Shown one piece after another: positions 3,172 to 13,369 of a stretch of 63,851 nucleotides of DNA (its first letter is position 1; each line of letters begins with the position of its first letter). Where the stretch lies: positions 64,001 to 127,851 of IMG/VR virus record IMGVR_UViG_2879469214_000003; one strand, written 5' to 3'. The position numbers and the translations under genes are program-made. Below the pieces are notes generated by a model, which was not told the DNA's origin, made no database searches, and saw only the letters and a list, made by a program, of their open reading frames with translations. The stretch comes from a virus (taxonomy: Duplodnaviria; Heunggongvirae; Uroviricota; Caudoviricetes).

Positions 3172-3678
3172 CTAATCAATAATTCTAACCTTTATATGCT
3201 TCTTTCGACCAAAATTTAAAGCTTCTTTTTCAGTTTCAAAGTACACGTCAATCCGTTTATTCTTAATGTCTCCACCTTTATCTTGCACAACTCTTTCCCC
3301 TACTCCATCTATGTAAACACGAGTTCCCTTTGGGAGTACTCGCCAGTCAGCAGCTATGGTAACTCCTTCTTTGGTCTTTTCCCCGCTTGCTGTGATTCCA
3401 TAATCTGCATCGCCCTTATTCTTGCCAGTGCTATTTTCATGGTTGGAATATGCGGTTAATTCGAAATACATCCAATCATATTCACCATCACTTTTTTTGC
3501 TAGATACTACTTTTACTTGCTTAACTTCCTTTTTGACAACCTTCTTGGGCTCCGCCGACTGTTCAACTTTAACACTCTCAATCTTAGTCGTGTTTTTCGC
3601 TTCTCGTGCTTGATTGGCACTTTCTAATCCTGCCTGACCAATGGATAGTGCCAACAATAGAGATAGGAGTACTTCCAA
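3172..3678 (-). CDS. Secreted 3D-domain (lytic transglycosylase-like) protein
   Basis: Signal peptide; LTAY, TASG, IAADWRVLPKGT, DKGGDIKNKRIDVY 3D motifs. Confidence 0.85.
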   Translation of the reverse strand: MEVLLSLLLALSIGQAGLESANQAREAKNTTKIESVKVEQSAEPKKVVKKEVKQVKVVSSKKSDGEYDWMYFELTAYSNHENSTGKNKGDADYGITASGEKTKEGVTIAADWRVLPKGTRVYIDGVGERVVQDKGGDIKNKRIDVYFETEKEALNFGRKKHIKVRIID

Positions 3679-3755
3679 CGTATCACCTTCCTGATATTTG
3701 ATTATAGTAAAGCCCCACTATTTCAAGTGAGGCTATATGTGCAACTACATTAATG

Positions 3756-4277
3756 CTAAAGGATATTCCTGCCTTTTAATTCTTCCATTACTTTTAGGAG
3801 CTTTTCAGTGGCCTGTTGGGATAAAATTACTTCTGAATTACTAATGGTTATTAACTTTTCAACATTCGGCTGCTTATCCTCTGGCTTATAAAATCTCTCA
3901 ATACGATAGTGATTCAATTCATCTTCCAATTTTTTTGATAATGTCCTTCCATACTTGAACGATTCTTGGAGTTCTTCGGACATGTAATCAAGAAAAGTAC
4001 TATAATCAGTGACACATTGCAGTTCAGCATCCTCATCTTCATAGTAAAGTTTTGTTATATGCTCACTGATATCTGAATTACTGTTTACTTGCTTGATGTG
4101 CTCAATCATTCTATCTTTTAAACAACTTTTAACTTTAGCTTTTGGATCAACTTCGACCACTGAATAACTGGTGCCTAGGACTTCATAAAACACATTTGGG
4201 TTATCTTTCGAATAAACAACATCGCCCTTTTTAAGAACCATTGGGAGTGGGGTCCAGTTAACTTCAATATCTGACAA
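3756..4277 (-). CDS. Hypothetical phage protein
   Basis: 173-aa ORF with SD AGGAGG. Confidence 0.7.
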   Translation of the reverse strand: MSDIEVNWTPLPMVLKKGDVVYSKDNPNVFYEVLGTSYSVVEVDPKAKVKSCLKDRMIEHIKQVNSNSDISEHITKLYYEDEDAELQCVTDYSTFLDYMSEELQESFKYGRTLSKKLEDELNHYRIERFYKPEDKQPNVEKLITISNSEVILSQQATEKLLKVMEELKGRNIL

Positions 4278-4293
4278 AATACGTCCTCCTATT

Positions 4294-4340
4294 TATCTAT
4301 ATGTAGATCGGGATGTTTACTTCTGATCTACATATAGATA
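4294..4340. repeat. Perfect 16-bp inverted repeat (15-nt loop) in intergenic region
   Basis: TATCTATATGTAGATC ... GATCTACATATAGATA. Confidence 0.85.
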
Positions 4341-4380
4341 TTTATTCTTTATGAAATCTGTCTTATATGAACTCTATGTA

Positions 4381-5553
4381 TTATTCAGGTAACTTGAAAT
4401 CAGTAATGAACTTGACCGCTTTAGTAAGTGCATCAACATCTGTAACTGTCGGATATGCTGCTGTACCCATAAGCTTTTTAAACTCTGGAACGACAAACTC
4501 AGTGAGTTGAGCATGTGTAAAGCGTTCTTTTTGTTTATGAATAGATTCGATCAATTCCTCAGCGGTAAACTTGGCCTCTTCCTGCTCACCAAACTCTTTA
4601 GCTTGCTCATCGCGCTCTTGTTCCTGTTCAACTTTTAACTCATCAATATTTTTCGTAGTCTTTTTAAGTTGACCTTTAACAGCATCTTCAAACACTTTCA
4701 GGAAGTTTTTGGCGCTGTACTCTACTGGTTCCTCTGGAAGATCCGTATACCGACCACCTGCAATGGAAATATACTCTGTAGGACGGAACACCATAACAGT
4801 GCGAGTCTCATGGAAGTTACTTCCCTTTTCTCTTCCTTTTTTGTCCTTGATATTGTCTGACATCTCGTCACCATCTTTATTTGTTACAACTACTTCATTG
4901 AACAAGCAACAAATCAAACTAGCTTGTGATTCAAAGATTTTACGTGCAGTAGCATGCATCATTAATTCAACAGAGTTATATTTCATACCGTTATACAGAG
5001 TCGTTTCTTTTTCTTTTGTCCAGCCTAATCCAAGCAAGCCGTAACCTGCATTACGAAGAGCATCAAACGGTTTCTTCATTTCTTCATAAAGAGCTGTGTA
5101 TCCATTTTCTTTATTGCTTGATGCATCACCAAGATCCTGTAATGAAATAATTGATGGTTTACCATAGCGTTTTGCTCTATCCTTTAACAACCACGAAGTT
5201 GCTGCATCCACACATCGGTCAGCAGTATCAATACCAATGAGTTTTACAATTCTTCCTTCCTTGGCTTCTTTTACGAGACCCGGAACAACTTCTTTCTTGA
5301 AAAATTCCCATTGTTTCCATGCATCTTCATCTGATCCTTCTTTATGAATTGGAATGATGTTGTCCAATTCCCATGTCTCATATCCGGGCTCAAACGCCAA
5401 CAGGAGTGCCTCATCAGGTGAATTATAGTGTAGCTCAGTTACCTCTTTCCAAAGGCGTGTTTTACCTGTTTTGTATGTACCAACAATAAGACTCATGATT
5501 GAATGAAGTTCCACTTTAGGCGTATTTTTTTGTACTTTATTTCTCCAACTCAT
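4381..5553 (-). CDS. AAA-family NTP-binding protein (recombination-associated, SPbeta YorG-like)
   Basis: Walker A GTYKTGKT, Walker B IGIDTAD, AFEPG, C-terminal coiled coil; next to SSB-like gene. Confidence 0.75.
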   Translation of the reverse strand: MSWRNKVQKNTPKVELHSIMSLIVGTYKTGKTRLWKEVTELHYNSPDEALLLAFEPGYETWELDNIIPIHKEGSDEDAWKQWEFFKKEVVPGLVKEAKEGRIVKLIGIDTADRCVDAATSWLLKDRAKRYGKPSIISLQDLGDASSNKENGYTALYEEMKKPFDALRNAGYGLLGLGWTKEKETTLYNGMKYNSVELMMHATARKIFESQASLICCLFNEVVVTNKDGDEMSDNIKDKKGREKGSNFHETRTVMVFRPTEYISIAGGRYTDLPEEPVEYSAKNFLKVFEDAVKGQLKKTTKNIDELKVEQEQERDEQAKEFGEQEEAKFTAEELIESIHKQKERFTHAQLTEFVVPEFKKLMGTAAYPTVTDVDALTKAVKFITDFKLPE

Positions 5554-7687: not shown

Positions 7688-8140
7688 CTACATAAACTTC
7701 ATGGCAAATCTATCGAATCTAATTTCTGGTTCTGCAACATGCAACTCATAAATAACTCTAGTATCATTGCATTGGAATCTTTCCAATTGGTATTCGCTAA
7801 GACACTCTTGAAATAGTCGCTCCAAGGAACTCTTACGATCTTTTATATATGTATCATTAAAATTTTCATAAGAGTCGAAGCGAGTCATCTTTATCATCTC
7901 TTTTCTGTATCCATATAAAAAGGAGTGAATAAATTCAGTAGATTTGTCTTTGCAGTTATCTACAAAATAGTCCATGTTTCCTTTAAACATAAACTCGACC
8001 ATGTTTAAAAAAGTTCCAGCTCTCTTGCTAACCCCCAAAATCTCCATGACTTGTTGCATATGCTCATACCTCTCTCGTAAAAATGTATTTTCTGGATGTA
8101 AATTCTTCCTATGTACAAATTTTAATCCATCTTTATACAC
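7688..8140 (-). CDS. Hypothetical protein downstream of Agr-like cassette (start may be ATG at 8059)
   Basis: 150-aa ORF; GAGGT SD precedes the internal ATG at 8059. Confidence 0.6.
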   Translation of the reverse strand: MYKDGLKFVHRKNLHPENTFLRERYEHMQQVMEILGVSKRAGTFLNMVEFMFKGNMDYFVDNCKDKSTEFIHSFLYGYRKEMIKMTRFDSYENFNDTYIKDRKSSLERLFQECLSEYQLERFQCNDTRVIYELHVAEPEIRFDRFAMKFM

Positions 8141-8333
8141 TTGACAATCATATTTGGTAGGTGACTAAATTGTATTGACATATGCATAAATATGGAATCG
8201 ATCCCATAATAGTGTCGTAAAATGTCGACACTGTGTTTTACAGAACTAGTGTTCGTATTTATTATACAACAAATCCTTTGGTATAACTATACTTACTTAG
8301 AAACATAACCTGATCTTCTATGTATTTAGCTGT

Positions 8334-8711: not shown

Positions 8712-8734
8712 GATGTTTCACCTCTTTTGAAATA

Positions 8735-8766
8735 GCTCTTCAACTTAACATTCTAAATTGAAGAGC
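8735..8766 (-). terminator. 9-bp hairpin between agrD and LytTR gene
   Basis: GCTCTTCAA / TTGAAGAGC with weak U-tract. Confidence 0.6.
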
Positions 8767-8778
8767 CCATTACTAAAA

Positions 8779-8913: not shown

Positions 8914-9440
8914 TTTACTTCACCTCCTTTCAAGCGAACCAAAAGGAGACTCTGAGCTAACATCGCTAGGCTAACTACTGGATTCTGAATTAAAAATCCT
9001 ATTAAAACTGTTAACATTGATATGTACTTTAGATACTTAAAATACTTTTTCAGTATCTTGGTTTGGTTTTCAATGTTGGATGGTGCATATACAGTAACCA
9101 AGATAAAAGCTATCCCAGAACAAATCCATTCAAATCCACCGATTAAACCTCCAAATTCAGCAATCGATAGTATTAATACAGATGAGTAGATTAAGCATAA
9201 TTCTGGATAGTCGCTATGATATCCACCCGATGTCATTCTGAGAATTGAAAAGGATAAAACGCTGATAAAAACATTCGATAAATTCCCTGTGAATACACCT
9301 ATTAACAATAATAATGAAATGGGAATCACATTTGTAAAGATGAATTTCAAACTATATCGAGTAATCCCAAATGGCGGCAATTCATTGGGAAACTGTGCCA
9401 CCAACCTTGTAGCAGTGTTGTTTACAAATTTATCAATCAT
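8910..9440 (-). CDS. agrB: AgrB-family peptide-processing membrane protease
   Basis: LRMTSGGYH and C (ELCLIYS) catalytic motifs, YAP motif, multiple TMs. Confidence 0.9.
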   Translation of the reverse strand: MIDKFVNNTATRLVAQFPNELPPFGITRYSLKFIFTNVIPISLLLLIGVFTGNLSNVFISVLSFSILRMTSGGYHSDYPELCLIYSSVLILSIAEFGGLIGGFEWICSGIAFILVTVYAPSNIENQTKILKKYFKYLKYISMLTVLIGFLIQNPVVSLAMLAQSLLLVRLKGGEVK

Positions 9441-10081
9441 CTAGCCTCACTCTTTTCTTTTACAACATCTACGAAAATAATATTAACTAAACAGATCAAC
9501 CAAAACAGTAATCCCAAATATATGTTTTCGATCTGTTTAACATTGTATAGAAGCGAAATGGCCAACAAACCGATGAAAACGCTAATTATATTTGTTCTAT
9601 TTATTTTAATTTTAAATGTGTAGTCATATGGCATTGTAGTATACCAAATTCTTCTTCTTTGTAGTGTTAAGGTAAGAATGATCAGCAATGAATTTCCGAT
9701 TAGTTGAATGTAAGATCCCAATTCGTCAATTGTTGCTGTGTAACTCTTGCTAGTAGCGAACATCATTATTATAGCAACCAGCATTTGAGAGATGAGTTGA
9801 GCCCCAAAACCATATATACTTAATTTCACACTGCTCCATGGACGAATTCTAAAATAAAAAGTAAGAAGTGTGACTAATAGAATAAAACAAATGAGAGGTA
9901 TGAATCCTGAGATCGCTTCATTTGATCTCATTAGAAATGTTCCTATTGATATTAAAACATTGCTAACTAAAATCTCTTTCCAATAATCTTTAAAACTAAC
10001 CTTAAAACACCCAAATGCAAACATGAAAATTGTAATCCCGTCCATTAAGCTCATTGCTGCATAAATTAAATCATTCTTCAT
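9437..10081 (-). CDS. Polytopic membrane protein resembling an AgrC sensor domain without a kinase domain
   Basis: 214 aa, about 6-7 TMs, no H-box or HATPase, stop overlaps agrB start. Confidence 0.65.
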   Translation of the reverse strand: MKNDLIYAAMSLMDGITIFMFAFGCFKVSFKDYWKEILVSNVLISIGTFLMRSNEAISGFIPLICFILLVTLLTFYFRIRPWSSVKLSIYGFGAQLISQMLVAIIMMFATSKSYTATIDELGSYIQLIGNSLLIILTLTLQRRRIWYTTMPYDYTFKIKINRTNIISVFIGLLAISLLYNVKQIENIYLGLLFWLICLVNIIFVDVVKEKSEAR

Positions 10082-10115: not shown

Positions 10116-10176
10116 TTACACTAAAATAATATGTATTTCATGAATTAAATATATCATATAGACCCATAGGAGTCAA
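10116..10176 (-). promoter_or_regulatory. Promoter of Agr-like cassette with inverted repeated box in the leader
   Basis: TTGACT(10176-10171)-17-TATATT(10153-10148); TTACACTAAAATAAT box on plus strand from 10116. Confidence 0.7.
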
Positions 10177-10190
10177 CTATTTATACAACA

Positions 10191-10221
10191 AAAAAAGAAT
10201 AAAGTTTTCACTCTATTCTTT
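10191..10221 (-). terminator. Terminator after mrpR
   Basis: AAAGAATAGAG / CTTTATTCTTT stem followed by U run on minus strand. Confidence 0.55.
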
Positions 10222-11230
10222 AAAGTCCATACACTTTTTCAATTGTGGGAATATTCAAGAATTCTGACCTCATAGGCCCAGATTGATACTGACCCATTTT
10301 ATCTTTCTTTATGTTGAAGTGTTCAAATATTTCCGAATATTCTTCTGCCTCTAACTTATTCCGCTTATGATACAAGTCTCTTGCCACTTTCAACATTCCA
10401 CTATTTCTTACGTTTTTTACAGTTAATTGAGGTAAGTTGTGCCACTCCGCTATTTTTTTCAGTCTTGATTGAACTAAATATATAGAAGTTGGCTCATCTA
10501 TTCCCTGTTTGATTGTAGAATTAACAGCGGATCTAAGAATATAGTCGTTATCAATCAATTCATTTACACTACTTTTAATGTTGGGCTTTAGTATGCCATT
10601 ATTCTTAATGTATTTCTCTTCTTTATTTGCTATTCTTAAAATGTTATATAAAAAATTAGATATTTTTATTTCTCTACTTTCTTTAGTCCCATCTCCATTA
10701 TCATTGAATAAGGTAATTCTATATTTCCCTTCACTTCCAGTTATGTGTTCCATTTTCATATTAAGAATTTCACTGTTTCCTTTACCCATAATTCCCTCAA
10801 ATAAAGCTTGAACTATTAGCTTATCCTGAAAATTCAAACACCCATCTACGACCTCACCTATATCATCTTCACTAAACAATGATTGATGGTTATCAATTAT
10901 AAATTGGCTATACCACTCAAAAGATGTTACCGCACTTAATGGGTTTATATTGTCTTTACGCAAGTCTTGATCTATCGCCCATCCTATGTAGTTATTAATA
11001 ACACTACCTGCTTGCCTTAAAGATGATATTTTTTTTGCCTTCAATAAATACAGAAATTGAGATATTTCATCAAGATTAAAATCATAAAGATCTTTATCTA
11101 AACTTTTTTCCATTATAGCAGCCCTTTTGAAAACACGTCCATAGGCCAGTTCTGTTGCTGGGCTCAAGTCTTTAAGGTATCTGCTTTTTTGATCTTTGTT
11201 AAAAAAATCTTCATTGTATATTTTATTCAC
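10220..11230 (-). CDS. mrpR: SPbeta-type master repressor MrpR/YopR (inactive tyrosine recombinase fold)
   Basis: FNKDQKSRYL, KDLYDF, YIGWAI, NFQDKLIVQALFEG, LTVKNVRNSG match YopR pattern; catalytic residues degenerate; GTG start at 11230 after GGAGGAG. Confidence 0.85.
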   Translation of the reverse strand: MNKIYNEDFFNKDQKSRYLKDLSPATELAYGRVFKRAAIMEKSLDKDLYDFNLDEISQFLYLLKAKKISSLRQAGSVINNYIGWAIDQDLRKDNINPLSAVTSFEWYSQFIIDNHQSLFSEDDIGEVVDGCLNFQDKLIVQALFEGIMGKGNSEILNMKMEHITGSEGKYRITLFNDNGDGTKESREIKISNFLYNILRIANKEEKYIKNNGILKPNIKSSVNELIDNDYILRSAVNSTIKQGIDEPTSIYLVQSRLKKIAEWHNLPQLTVKNVRNSGMLKVARDLYHKRNKLEAEEYSEIFEHFNIKKDKMGQYQSGPMRSEFLNIPTIEKVYGL

Positions 11231-12545
11231 CTTTATCGTCTCCTCCAAACAGCTCAACAAAGTAATTAAAAAGTTGTTCACGAAGTCTTTTGTTATTAGT
11301 CAAAGAAGCTTTAGAATTTAATTTTGTCTCTAAATTCACTAAGTCATTTTCAATAATATTAATGTACTGTTCAATATCAGCAAATTCAATCTCATTATCC
11401 TTTAAAAATCTAGACAGTACAATGTAACCAATAAACATTAAAGGGTGACTCATCCATCCATTCTCACGCAATTGAGTATTTTTCGAAAACTCATTTGGAT
11501 AATAACCTACGAGATAAACAAAAAAGTCATTTAGATACTTAGAGACCTGTATTACATCAAATTTTCTTTCCATCTTAAATGCGCGGTCTATAGCATAAGA
11601 TAGAATATCGAATGTCGTTAGCTCACCAGCTAAATCACTTACAGTACTCCCTGAAGCAATCTGTTTACCAATTTCTGATTTGCGCTGTAGTTCGACTACA
11701 ACTTTATCAGATAATTTTTCTTGAGCGAGCTCCTTTCTTCTCTCTTTATTCAATACGTTAATAGTATTGAGTTGACTAAAAAACTGCTTAGATGTCTCAT
11801 AATCATAAATTCTAACTGATAGTATTTCATTAAAATCCGTCAAAGGATTAATGCTAATAGCGGCAACAAATCCCTGTAATCGATGGAAGCCATCAAGGAT
11901 AGAAATTACTGCTCCATCATTTATAGTCAACATTCTTGTATCTGAATTATAACTTACAGGATCAATTTCTGTAGAGTATACATTTAATGTTATCATGTCC
12001 TCAAAATACTTGTTATCAGAGGCTTTAGCAGCAATTCTCTTTACACTTGCTCTGTTTAAAATTGGAGATTTAACTATCCCACCTGATTTATTCTGCTTAT
12101 AAGTCACTCCACGCTGAGTTTCTTCTTCATAAATTATAAGTTGACTATTTACCATCTTGACCAATTCTTTAATTGAAATTTTAGTGAGATAACTGTCATA
12201 TTTAACTTCAATTACATCATTTAAAGTGTAAGGTAAATAAATTTTATTTTGTTCTTTTTCTTTTAATGATATTAAAGCTTCTCTAATTTCACGTTCTCCA
12301 AAATATCTTTCTCGACTAGGGTTGGATTGATCCACCTCATGTAATGCGCTAACAATGCCCACTAAATGAGGTATAGATAACTCAGTTATTGTTTCTTCAT
12401 TTTGATAAATTCTCTGTATCATTCCAAACGGTACATTGTATTCAACCAGTTTTAGATTTAACTCGTACTGAGATTTTCTTGAATTTTGTGTTGATTTTAA
12501 AGTTTCTAAAATTTCTTTCTCAATATCAGATCGATCAAATTTCAT
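11223..12545 (-). CDS. DndB/DGQHR-like protein, SPbeta YopQ (SroE)-like
   Basis: ILDGFHRL motif, 440 aa, directly upstream of mrpR as in SPbeta. Confidence 0.75.
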   Translation of the reverse strand: MKFDRSDIEKEILETLKSTQNSRKSQYELNLKLVEYNVPFGMIQRIYQNEETITELSIPHLVGIVSALHEVDQSNPSRERYFGEREIREALISLKEKEQNKIYLPYTLNDVIEVKYDSYLTKISIKELVKMVNSQLIIYEEETQRGVTYKQNKSGGIVKSPILNRASVKRIAAKASDNKYFEDMITLNVYSTEIDPVSYNSDTRMLTINDGAVISILDGFHRLQGFVAAISINPLTDFNEILSVRIYDYETSKQFFSQLNTINVLNKERRKELAQEKLSDKVVVELQRKSEIGKQIASGSTVSDLAGELTTFDILSYAIDRAFKMERKFDVIQVSKYLNDFFVYLVGYYPNEFSKNTQLRENGWMSHPLMFIGYIVLSRFLKDNEIEFADIEQYINIIENDLVNLETKLNSKASLTNNKRLREQLFNYFVELFGGDDKGE

Positions 12546-12997: not shown

Positions 12998-13369
12998 TTA
13001 CAAAGACAACGATAGTTGTAGTGCCTTGTTAATTGAATTTCCAAAGTGTCTTGGAAGTTCTGCAATTTTAAAGTCTAACTGATCTTTTGAAACTGTCATG
13101 ATTTGTTCCAACAGAATAATACTATCTTCATATAATCCAATTTCATCTTTATTTACTTTAACATGTGTGGGCATAGCCTTTTTCACTCTACTTGTAACTG
13201 GGGCCACAATCACTACTGGACTATATTTATTTCCCATGTCGTTTCCTAAAACGATACACGGTCTCTCTCCACTTTGGACGCTGCCTTTATTTCTTCCTAG
13301 GTTTACATTCCACATATCTAATCTCTTAACTTCTTTCATTACTCTCTCCATTACTACTGCCATAATCAC
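12998..13369 (-). CDS. mazF: MazF/PemK (EndoA-like) endoribonuclease
   Basis: GSVQSGERPCIVLGNDMGNKYSPVVIVAPVTS, PTHV, LEQIMTVSK; catalytic Arg and Thr present. Confidence 0.9.
   Translation of the reverse strand: MIMAVVMERVMKEVKRLDMWNVNLGRNKGSVQSGERPCIVLGNDMGNKYSPVVIVAPVTSRVKKAMPTHVKVNKDEIGLYEDSIILLEQIMTVSKDQLDFKIAELPRHFGNSINKALQLSLSL

Follow-up and report, generated by a model that had tools for sequence, protein, structure and literature searches.

The agr locus is the textbook peptide quorum sensor of Gram-positive bacteria and, to our knowledge, has always been described as a kinase with a phosphorylated regulator. In the cassette analysed here, the phosphotransfer modules have been lost from both partners, but the pair was conserved in about two thirds of the sampled Paenibacillales and in several phages. 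This raises the question of how a peptide signal would pass from a membrane protein of 214 aa without kinase domain to a LytTR-fold protein of 125 aa without receiver.

The cassette was located on a provirus record of 127.8 kb, which was approximately 95% complete. The window, meaning the whole stretch of 63.8 kb analysed here, represented bases 64001-127851 of this record. Relatives of the gene for the 214-aa protein all originated from Paenibacillus, and the element is a large prophage of this genus.

Gene order and promoters around the cassette

On the minus strand, the order in the direction of transcription was a MazF-like toxin, a DndB-like protein, an MrpR/YopR-type repressor, a hairpin with T-run, a promoter and the cassette. 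The cassette itself comprised the gene for the 214-aa membrane protein, agrB, agrD, a hairpin and the gene for the 125-aa LytTR-fold protein (Table 1). The whole neighbourhood was common to five related genome loci. The stop codon of the membrane protein gene overlapped the start of agrB (ATGA), and the two genes were translationally coupled. The stop codon of agrB overlapped the start of agrD in the same manner. The hairpin behind agrD may act as a partial terminator in front of the LytTR gene and may partly uncouple transcription of this gene from that of the rest of the cassette. At the other end of the cassette, a conserved GAAATACATATTAT block followed the -10 element of the promoter, and a second copy of the block was not present elsewhere in the provirus. 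The gene upstream is related to the master repressor MrpR of SPbeta (PMC10516654).

Table 1. Features of the cassette and its surroundings, with positions in the window
Feature	Position	Strand	Remarks
MrpR/YopR-type master-repressor homologue	10220..11281	-	MrpR_N_CB 1.6e-24; directly upstream of the cassette
Terminator-like hairpin with T-run	10189..10219	-	Directly after the mrpR stop codon; conserved in related prophages
Cassette promoter, TTGACT-17-(TG)aTATATT	10148..10176	-	Near-consensus; conserved in five related prophages
Seven-helix membrane protein, 214 aa, kinase-less and by profile comparison homologous to the AgrC sensor module	9437..10081	-	ATG start; GGAG ribosome-binding site
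AgrB, 176 aa	8910..9440	-	Pfam 3.6e-20; start overlaps stop of the membrane protein gene
AgrD precursor, 44 aa	8779..8913	-	TIGR04223 1e-7; ends ...TASWTLIHSEPVPEELK
Stable hairpin after agrD	8734..8767	-	-18.5 to -19.6 kcal/mol, z -4.5; weak U tract
LytTR-fold protein without receiver, 125 aa	8334..8711	-	Own ribosome-binding site; assigned by predicted fold and family profile
TATAAT with GAAC-N4-GTTC (LexA/Cheo-type box)	8243..8266	-	Closely follows the cassette; head of the following gene block
Second receiver-less LytTR-like protein, 111 aa	17713..18048	-	Family HMM 6.7e-11; no Pfam match

The 63.8-kb window contained only two LexA/Cheo-type boxes. The copy behind the cassette started 6 nt after the TATAAT hexamer and was conserved in four of the five related prophages. 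Together with its place at the head of the following gene block, this suggests an SOS-controlled early promoter. The LexA-boxed promoter was followed by a long, highly conserved leader (positions 8120-8240, minus strand) with paired TCGACA/ACGACA and two TGTCAA motifs approximately 34 nt apart. These motifs may serve as operators that are bound, perhaps, by the MrpR-like repressor. The first gene behind this promoter (7688-8140, minus strand) encoded a protein of 123-150 aa that was present in all related prophages and matched no entry in any library. The repressor region was headed by a PemK/MazF-type toxin gene (12998-13369, minus strand; Pfam 7.2e-25), beside which no obvious antitoxin gene was seen.

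The 214-aa membrane protein and AgrC sensor modules

Fifteen relatives of the 214-aa protein with 53-80% identity were found in Paenibacillus. Values of dN ranged from 0.14 to 0.36 with saturated synonymous sites, and dN/dS was 0.08-0.11 where it could be computed. Judged by these substitution patterns, the open reading frame is a real gene under purifying selection. For more distant comparisons, a narrow phage-type alignment (A1) and a wide family alignment of 82 sequences (A3) were used. A profile search through 1.84 billion representative proteins yielded 85 relatives. All of them were 73-236 aa long, so none was fused to a kinase. Kinase-fused relatives of at least 414 aa were not found in a search restricted to longer proteins either, which is weak evidence. 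Of the 401 Paenibacillales genomes sampled, 261 contained the family (E≤1e-18), often with two to seven copies, and the A1-based search recovered close relatives in five IMG/VR proviruses, 128-204 kb in size. The missing kinase half could also mark the protein as a decaying agrC remnant without a function of its own. This explanation is barely conceivable, given the uniform length of 205-236 aa across the 85 representative clusters, the occurrence in 65% of the sampled Paenibacillales, often as multiple copies, the nonsynonymous change far below the saturated synonymous change, and the conserved promoter and translational coupling.

The initial annotation had described the protein as consisting of membrane helices without a kinase domain. 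Seven helices were predicted, and neither Pfam nor a kinase-core HMM detected a kinase domain. In Pfam at E≤10, only a sub-threshold match to DUF6944 was obtained. SPOB_a and HisKA were absent, and thus no helix with a phospho-accepting histidine was found. The protein ended 10 residues past helix 7. Lysine and arginine residues numbered 14 in the predicted inner loops and four in the outer loops, indicating an N-out, C-in topology. Under this predicted topology, the inner loops were better conserved than the outer loops (1.98, 1.98 and 1.73 versus 1.14, 1.03 and 1.05 bits in A3). The best-conserved parts of the family were FRI at residues 77-79, the GFTFxP/WYTTMP loop at 142-165 and a C-terminal KE, and two glutamines within the membrane were near-invariant. 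The outer loops were most variable. Conservation on the inside and variability on the outside would suit a partner in the cytoplasm that stays constant and a ligand that varies, although the pattern is not specific evidence.

The AlphaFold2 monomer model contained seven helices at low confidence (pLDDT 61). Foldseek searches with this model returned generic seven-helix noise, and the model was discarded as too poor for use. In the ESM Atlas, only unnamed clusters matched the protein. Neither the cassette nor the 214-aa protein gave a match in DNA and protein searches of phage collections; only AgrB reached a phage, Abouo.

Homology to AgrC became apparent at the profile level. The sensor parts of nine kinases were aligned (A4), and hhalign matched A3 to A4 with a probability of 98.5% (E 3.7e-15, 166 columns) and A1 to A4 with 92.4%. 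AgrB, which is also polytopic and originates from the same loci, served as control and gave only 1.4% with the A3 profile, so the match between A3 and A4 is not an effect of composition. The kinases were reached only with A3 and with hhalign; the A1 profile did not reach them by HMMER. The A3 profile had no match among PDB sequences. The initial annotation had proposed a structural comparison with the AgrC sensor domain. The likeness was borne out by the profile match, whereas the structure model was too poor to contribute.

In whole genomes of 401 Bacillota, the A3 profile matched three kinds of frames. The first were proteins of approximately 215 aa with agrB directly behind each. The second were proteins of 440-496 aa, AgrC-type kinases of about 446 aa, which were matched over their first 190-200 residues. 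All five of these that were tested carried SPOB_a, HATPase_c and HATPase_c_5. Seven of the nine matching kinases were adjoined by agrB and one by a clear AgrD. At these loci the kinase gene preceded agrB, the same order as in the cassette. The third were proteins of approximately 165 aa in which the match spanned the first five helices, with a kinase half encoded by the next gene. By profile similarity and position, the 214-aa protein is homologous to the AgrC sensor module but kinase-less, standing at the place of agrC directly upstream of agrB. Its sequence relationships indicate that it descends from the polytopic sensor module of AgrC-type kinases or that the two share an ancestor. As a true homologue of such sensors, the protein can reasonably be expected to bind peptide.

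Frames of the third kind represented split AgrC-type kinases, which were seen at five loci of other Bacillota. There, a sensor half of approximately 165 aa was followed by a protein of approximately 290 aa with two helices, SPOB_a and HATPase_c_5, sometimes with agrB adjacent. Like the 214-aa protein, these sensor halves are separate proteins and match the same profile. They differ in length and always have the kinase half directly behind, which is not the case in the cassette.

Split genes demonstrate that a sensor need not share a polypeptide with its kinase. The 214-aa protein could accordingly be a detached sensor subunit of a kinase encoded elsewhere, or a decoy or modulator paired with an AgrC-type kinase of the host. 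A kinase core lay within 4 kb in three of 51 loci of the family, and some hosts carried an orphan kinase with a REC-LytTR partner. However, no kinase core was detected anywhere in the provirus: PF14501 (HATPase_c_5) had no match in the whole 127.8 kb at E≤1, and a local AgrC-type kinase-core HMM had none at E≤0.1. The provirus thus encodes nothing that could take the role of such a kinase. Among five related lysogen genomes, on which the statements on hosts are based, a strong HPK10-type kinase was present in only three, paired with a REC-LytTR regulator, and its sensor scored negative against the family profile. In two of the five, agrB was absent apart from the prophage copy. Moreover, the conserved LytTR partner of the cassette offers no receiver to phosphorylate. 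Signalling through a kinase in trans is thus quite improbable, and the earlier suggestion of a decoy for, or partner of, a host AgrC was weakened.

In related hosts, an orphan REC-LytTR regulator and a kinase of 432 aa with HATPase_c_5 were encoded at three loci beside a secreted protein of 684 aa, with no agrB nearby.

Receiver-less LytTR proteins and linkage of the cassette genes

Pfam did not call a LytTR domain in the 125-aa protein, even at E 10. Its AlphaFold2 monomer model reached a pLDDT of 85, and the ten best Foldseek matches in the PDB were all LytTR domains, including those of AgrA, a B. cereus LytTR protein and ComE, with probability 1.00 and TM 0.62-0.76. AgrA (4g4k) was the top match (E 3e-5). 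A profile of 12 sequences of the 125-aa protein had its best PDB match in AgrA as well (E 0.0065), and the profile of a 35-member LytTR family matched AgrA at 1.5e-8. Thirty of these 35 members matched Pfam LytTR. All were 108-153 aa long and none carried a receiver. According to the predicted fold and these profiles, the 125-aa protein is a LytTR domain without receiver. The structure search, the family profile, the Pfam matches and the short length all agree with the description of a receiver-less regulator given in the initial annotation. Its statement that phosphotransfer from AgrC to AgrA is impossible within the cassette also held, with neither DHp/CA nor receiver present.

Compared with canonical AgrC-AgrA systems (agrBDCA of S. 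aureus, agrC-agrB of clostridia), the cassette shared a homologous sensor module adjoining agrB and agrD, and an output protein with the LytTR fold of the DNA-binding domain of AgrA. It differed by lacking the DHp histidine helix, the ATP-binding domain and the receiver.

Linkage was determined in 40 of the best-scoring Paenibacillales matches with their 4-kb flanks. The membrane protein gene was directly followed by agrB in 37 of the 40 loci, and a solo LytTR gene (108-153 aa) stood behind agrB/agrD in 29. The tighter link to agrB counts against gating of LytTR by the membrane protein and forms part of the case for the main rival explanation, in which the membrane protein works with AgrB in peptide maturation, export, retention or protection of the producer. 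Translational coupling to agrB points in the same direction. One subgroup, located beside rsmD/coaD, consisted of membrane protein, AgrB and AgrD with no LytTR adjacent, and one genome encoded a fusion of membrane protein and AgrB. On the other hand, the relatives of the membrane protein are ligand-sensing kinase modules and not proteases or transporters, and a protease-type His/Glu motif was not conserved in the family. The single fusion has siblings in which the two genes are separate, and an indel would seem to explain it. In addition, the agrBD pair of Paenibacillus polymyxa alone makes peptide in B. subtilis (PMC12180512), although this is a classical pair from a different locus type. A role with AgrB, which the initial annotation had not raised, was considered unlikely.

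The fusion was a single frame of 379 aa on the minus strand (locus L099, positions 3482-4621). It was rejected as a true form and probably results from an indel, with two overlapping genes in close siblings. Three Paenibacillales loci contained tandem arrays: the membrane protein was present there as two to five paralogues, grouped around one agrB and one solo LytTR gene.

HdrRM and BrsRM of Streptococcus mutans, whose defining features were taken from the literature (PMC6193735), likewise combine a receiver-less LytTR protein with a co-encoded membrane protein and lack a kinase. The defining features comprise positive autoregulation and, immediately ahead of the operon's -35 element, pairs of 9-bp direct repeats with 11-13 bp between them (PMC6193735). 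In contrast, no 9-bp direct repeats were found near the cassette promoter at 8/9 or 7/9 matches, and none with a 12-bp spacer lay ahead of the -35 element; more degenerate sites may have escaped these scans. Only 13 nt separated the mrpR terminator from the -35 element. Across 46 promoters of the family, direct repeats were not enriched, with seven loci compared to 4.9 ± 2.0 in shuffled sequences. The gene order was also opposite, and the cassette held agrBD and a stable hairpin between the two genes, on the same strand. The 214-aa protein was unrelated to the streptococcal inhibitors and lacked DUF2154, as present in HdrM, in Pfam at E≤10. Finally, the signals of HdrRM and BrsRM are unknown, whereas the cassette encodes a dedicated peptide signal. 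The initial annotation had proposed a hybrid of Agr and LytTR regulatory systems. The AgrC-sensor homology and the pairing with a receiver-less LytTR (29/40 loci, and Abouo) supported this proposal; the comparison with the inhibitors, the gene order and the direct repeats did not. The cassette may work like a LytTR regulatory system and was not filed as a member.

Signal transfer, phage context and peptide

With DHp/CA absent from the membrane protein and no receiver in its partner, a signal would pass by protein contact. The pair was nevertheless kept, and the simplest reading is that peptide binding was retained and that signalling occurs by contact. In this preferred reading, which we rate at slightly under even chances, the 214-aa protein would serve as peptide receptor in an agr variant that has no phosphorelay, acting directly on the solo LytTR protein. 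The reading is favoured by the AgrC-sensor homology, the stand-alone form of all relatives, the linkage, with a kinase core within 4 kb in only three of 51 loci, the conserved inner loops, the purifying selection and the wide spread. Against it stand the tighter link to agrB, the subgroup with no LytTR adjacent, the lack of LytTR-type direct repeats, the hairpin behind agrD, the marginal covariation of the peptide core and the poor model of the seven-helix protein. We infer peptide binding, LytTR contact, a direction of control and target promoters as follows. AgrB would process AgrD to a cyclic peptide, whose ring would probably be the Ser lactone SWTLI. The peptide would bind the outer or membrane-embedded face of the seven-helix protein. 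The conserved cytoplasmic loops and the C-terminal KE are the likely surface through which the signal would reach the solo LytTR protein. This contact would hold or release LytTR, which would then act on DNA. The cassette is positioned between the master-repressor gene and the LexA-boxed promoter and may feed the density of phages or lysogens into the lysis-lysogeny circuit. If the membrane protein controls LytTR directly, this would constitute a second route of agr signalling and link agr to LytTR regulatory systems, which are poorly understood.

The position of the cassette resembles that of arbitrium (AimR-AimP-AimX) in the SPbeta family. Both are peptide modules of large, SPbeta-like temperate phages near the MrpR/YopR region. 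The proteins are unrelated, and position is the sole basis of the analogy. In arbitrium, a linear peptide is imported and sensed by a receptor in the cytoplasm. By the same logic as in RRNPP systems and arbitrium, the membrane protein could import the peptide, which would then bind LytTR or another factor directly. We know of no AgrC sensor that is a transporter and of no LytTR domain that binds peptides, and the 214-aa protein matched no transporter family. Import is very improbable on these grounds, despite the location of the cassette next to mrpR, where arbitrium-like control would be expected (PMC10516654).

Direct action of the membrane protein on LytTR can be extended to a broader proposal. 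A branch of agr would have replaced phosphotransfer by direct gating, with an AgrC-derived seven-helix protein holding or releasing LytTR upon binding of a cyclic peptide. In SPbeta-like Paenibacillus phages, this branch would operate instead of arbitrium and report phage or lysogen density to a repressor and SOS-controlled switch. We regard this proposal as possible but rather doubtful. If true, phages would possess a communication channel other than arbitrium at the lysis-lysogeny switch.

The same four-gene cassette was identified in the same order in Brevibacillus phage Abouo as gp44-gp47, each gene matching the respective family profile. Gp44 matched the family HMM at 1.4e-48, gp45 was AgrB and gp46 was AgrD. 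Gp47 (NC_029029.1, 27554-27922) was a solo LytTR-type protein (family HMM 7.8e-18), annotated as 'peptidase' like PHROG 15081. This identity agreed with the PHROG matches. Abouo differs in being a phage of 45 kb that carries the cassette beside its integrase.

Kinase-less membrane proteins of the phages Abouo, Davies and Emery were mentioned in passing by Hargreaves et al. (2014; PMC3901668). In that study, 18-20% identity was the only evidence of homology, LytTR was unrecognised and no mechanism was proposed (PMC3901668). The agr3 locus of Clostridioides difficile phage phiCDHM1 is likewise a phage-borne agr locus without a phage response regulator (PMC3901668). It differs in an AgrC of 453 aa that has kept its HATPase domain and in the lack of a LytTR protein in the phage (PMC3901668). 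Two papers on Paenibacillus polymyxa treat classical agrBD and agrABCD loci and not a kinase-less receptor. Nothing further on a kinase-less AgrC paired with a receiver-less LytTR was found in the open literature. The present analysis adds AgrC-sensor homology at the profile level, the AgrB control, the split forms, and the counts of prevalence and linkage.

A pattern search recognised AgrD in 39 of 46 modules. The tail of the precursor in the cassette reads ...TASWTLI-HSEPVPEELK. This fits the staphylococcal register, which would give a Ser-lactone ring SWTLI as the likely form of the peptide. Sister loci had Cys or Ser at the same position of AgrD (TACMFLG|HRPDTPEEL, TASWTVI|HNEPVPEEM). Covariation of the peptide core was marginally stronger with the outer and membrane parts of the 214-aa protein than with its inner loops, a weak signal that is not corrected for phylogeny.

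In many AgrD sequences of such cassettes, Lys replaced the ring-closing Cys or Ser, for example in TLKPMVF-SPKAPKEL. This was observed at nine bacterial loci and in Abouo gp46. The chemistry of the ring may differ in this Lys-type subgroup.
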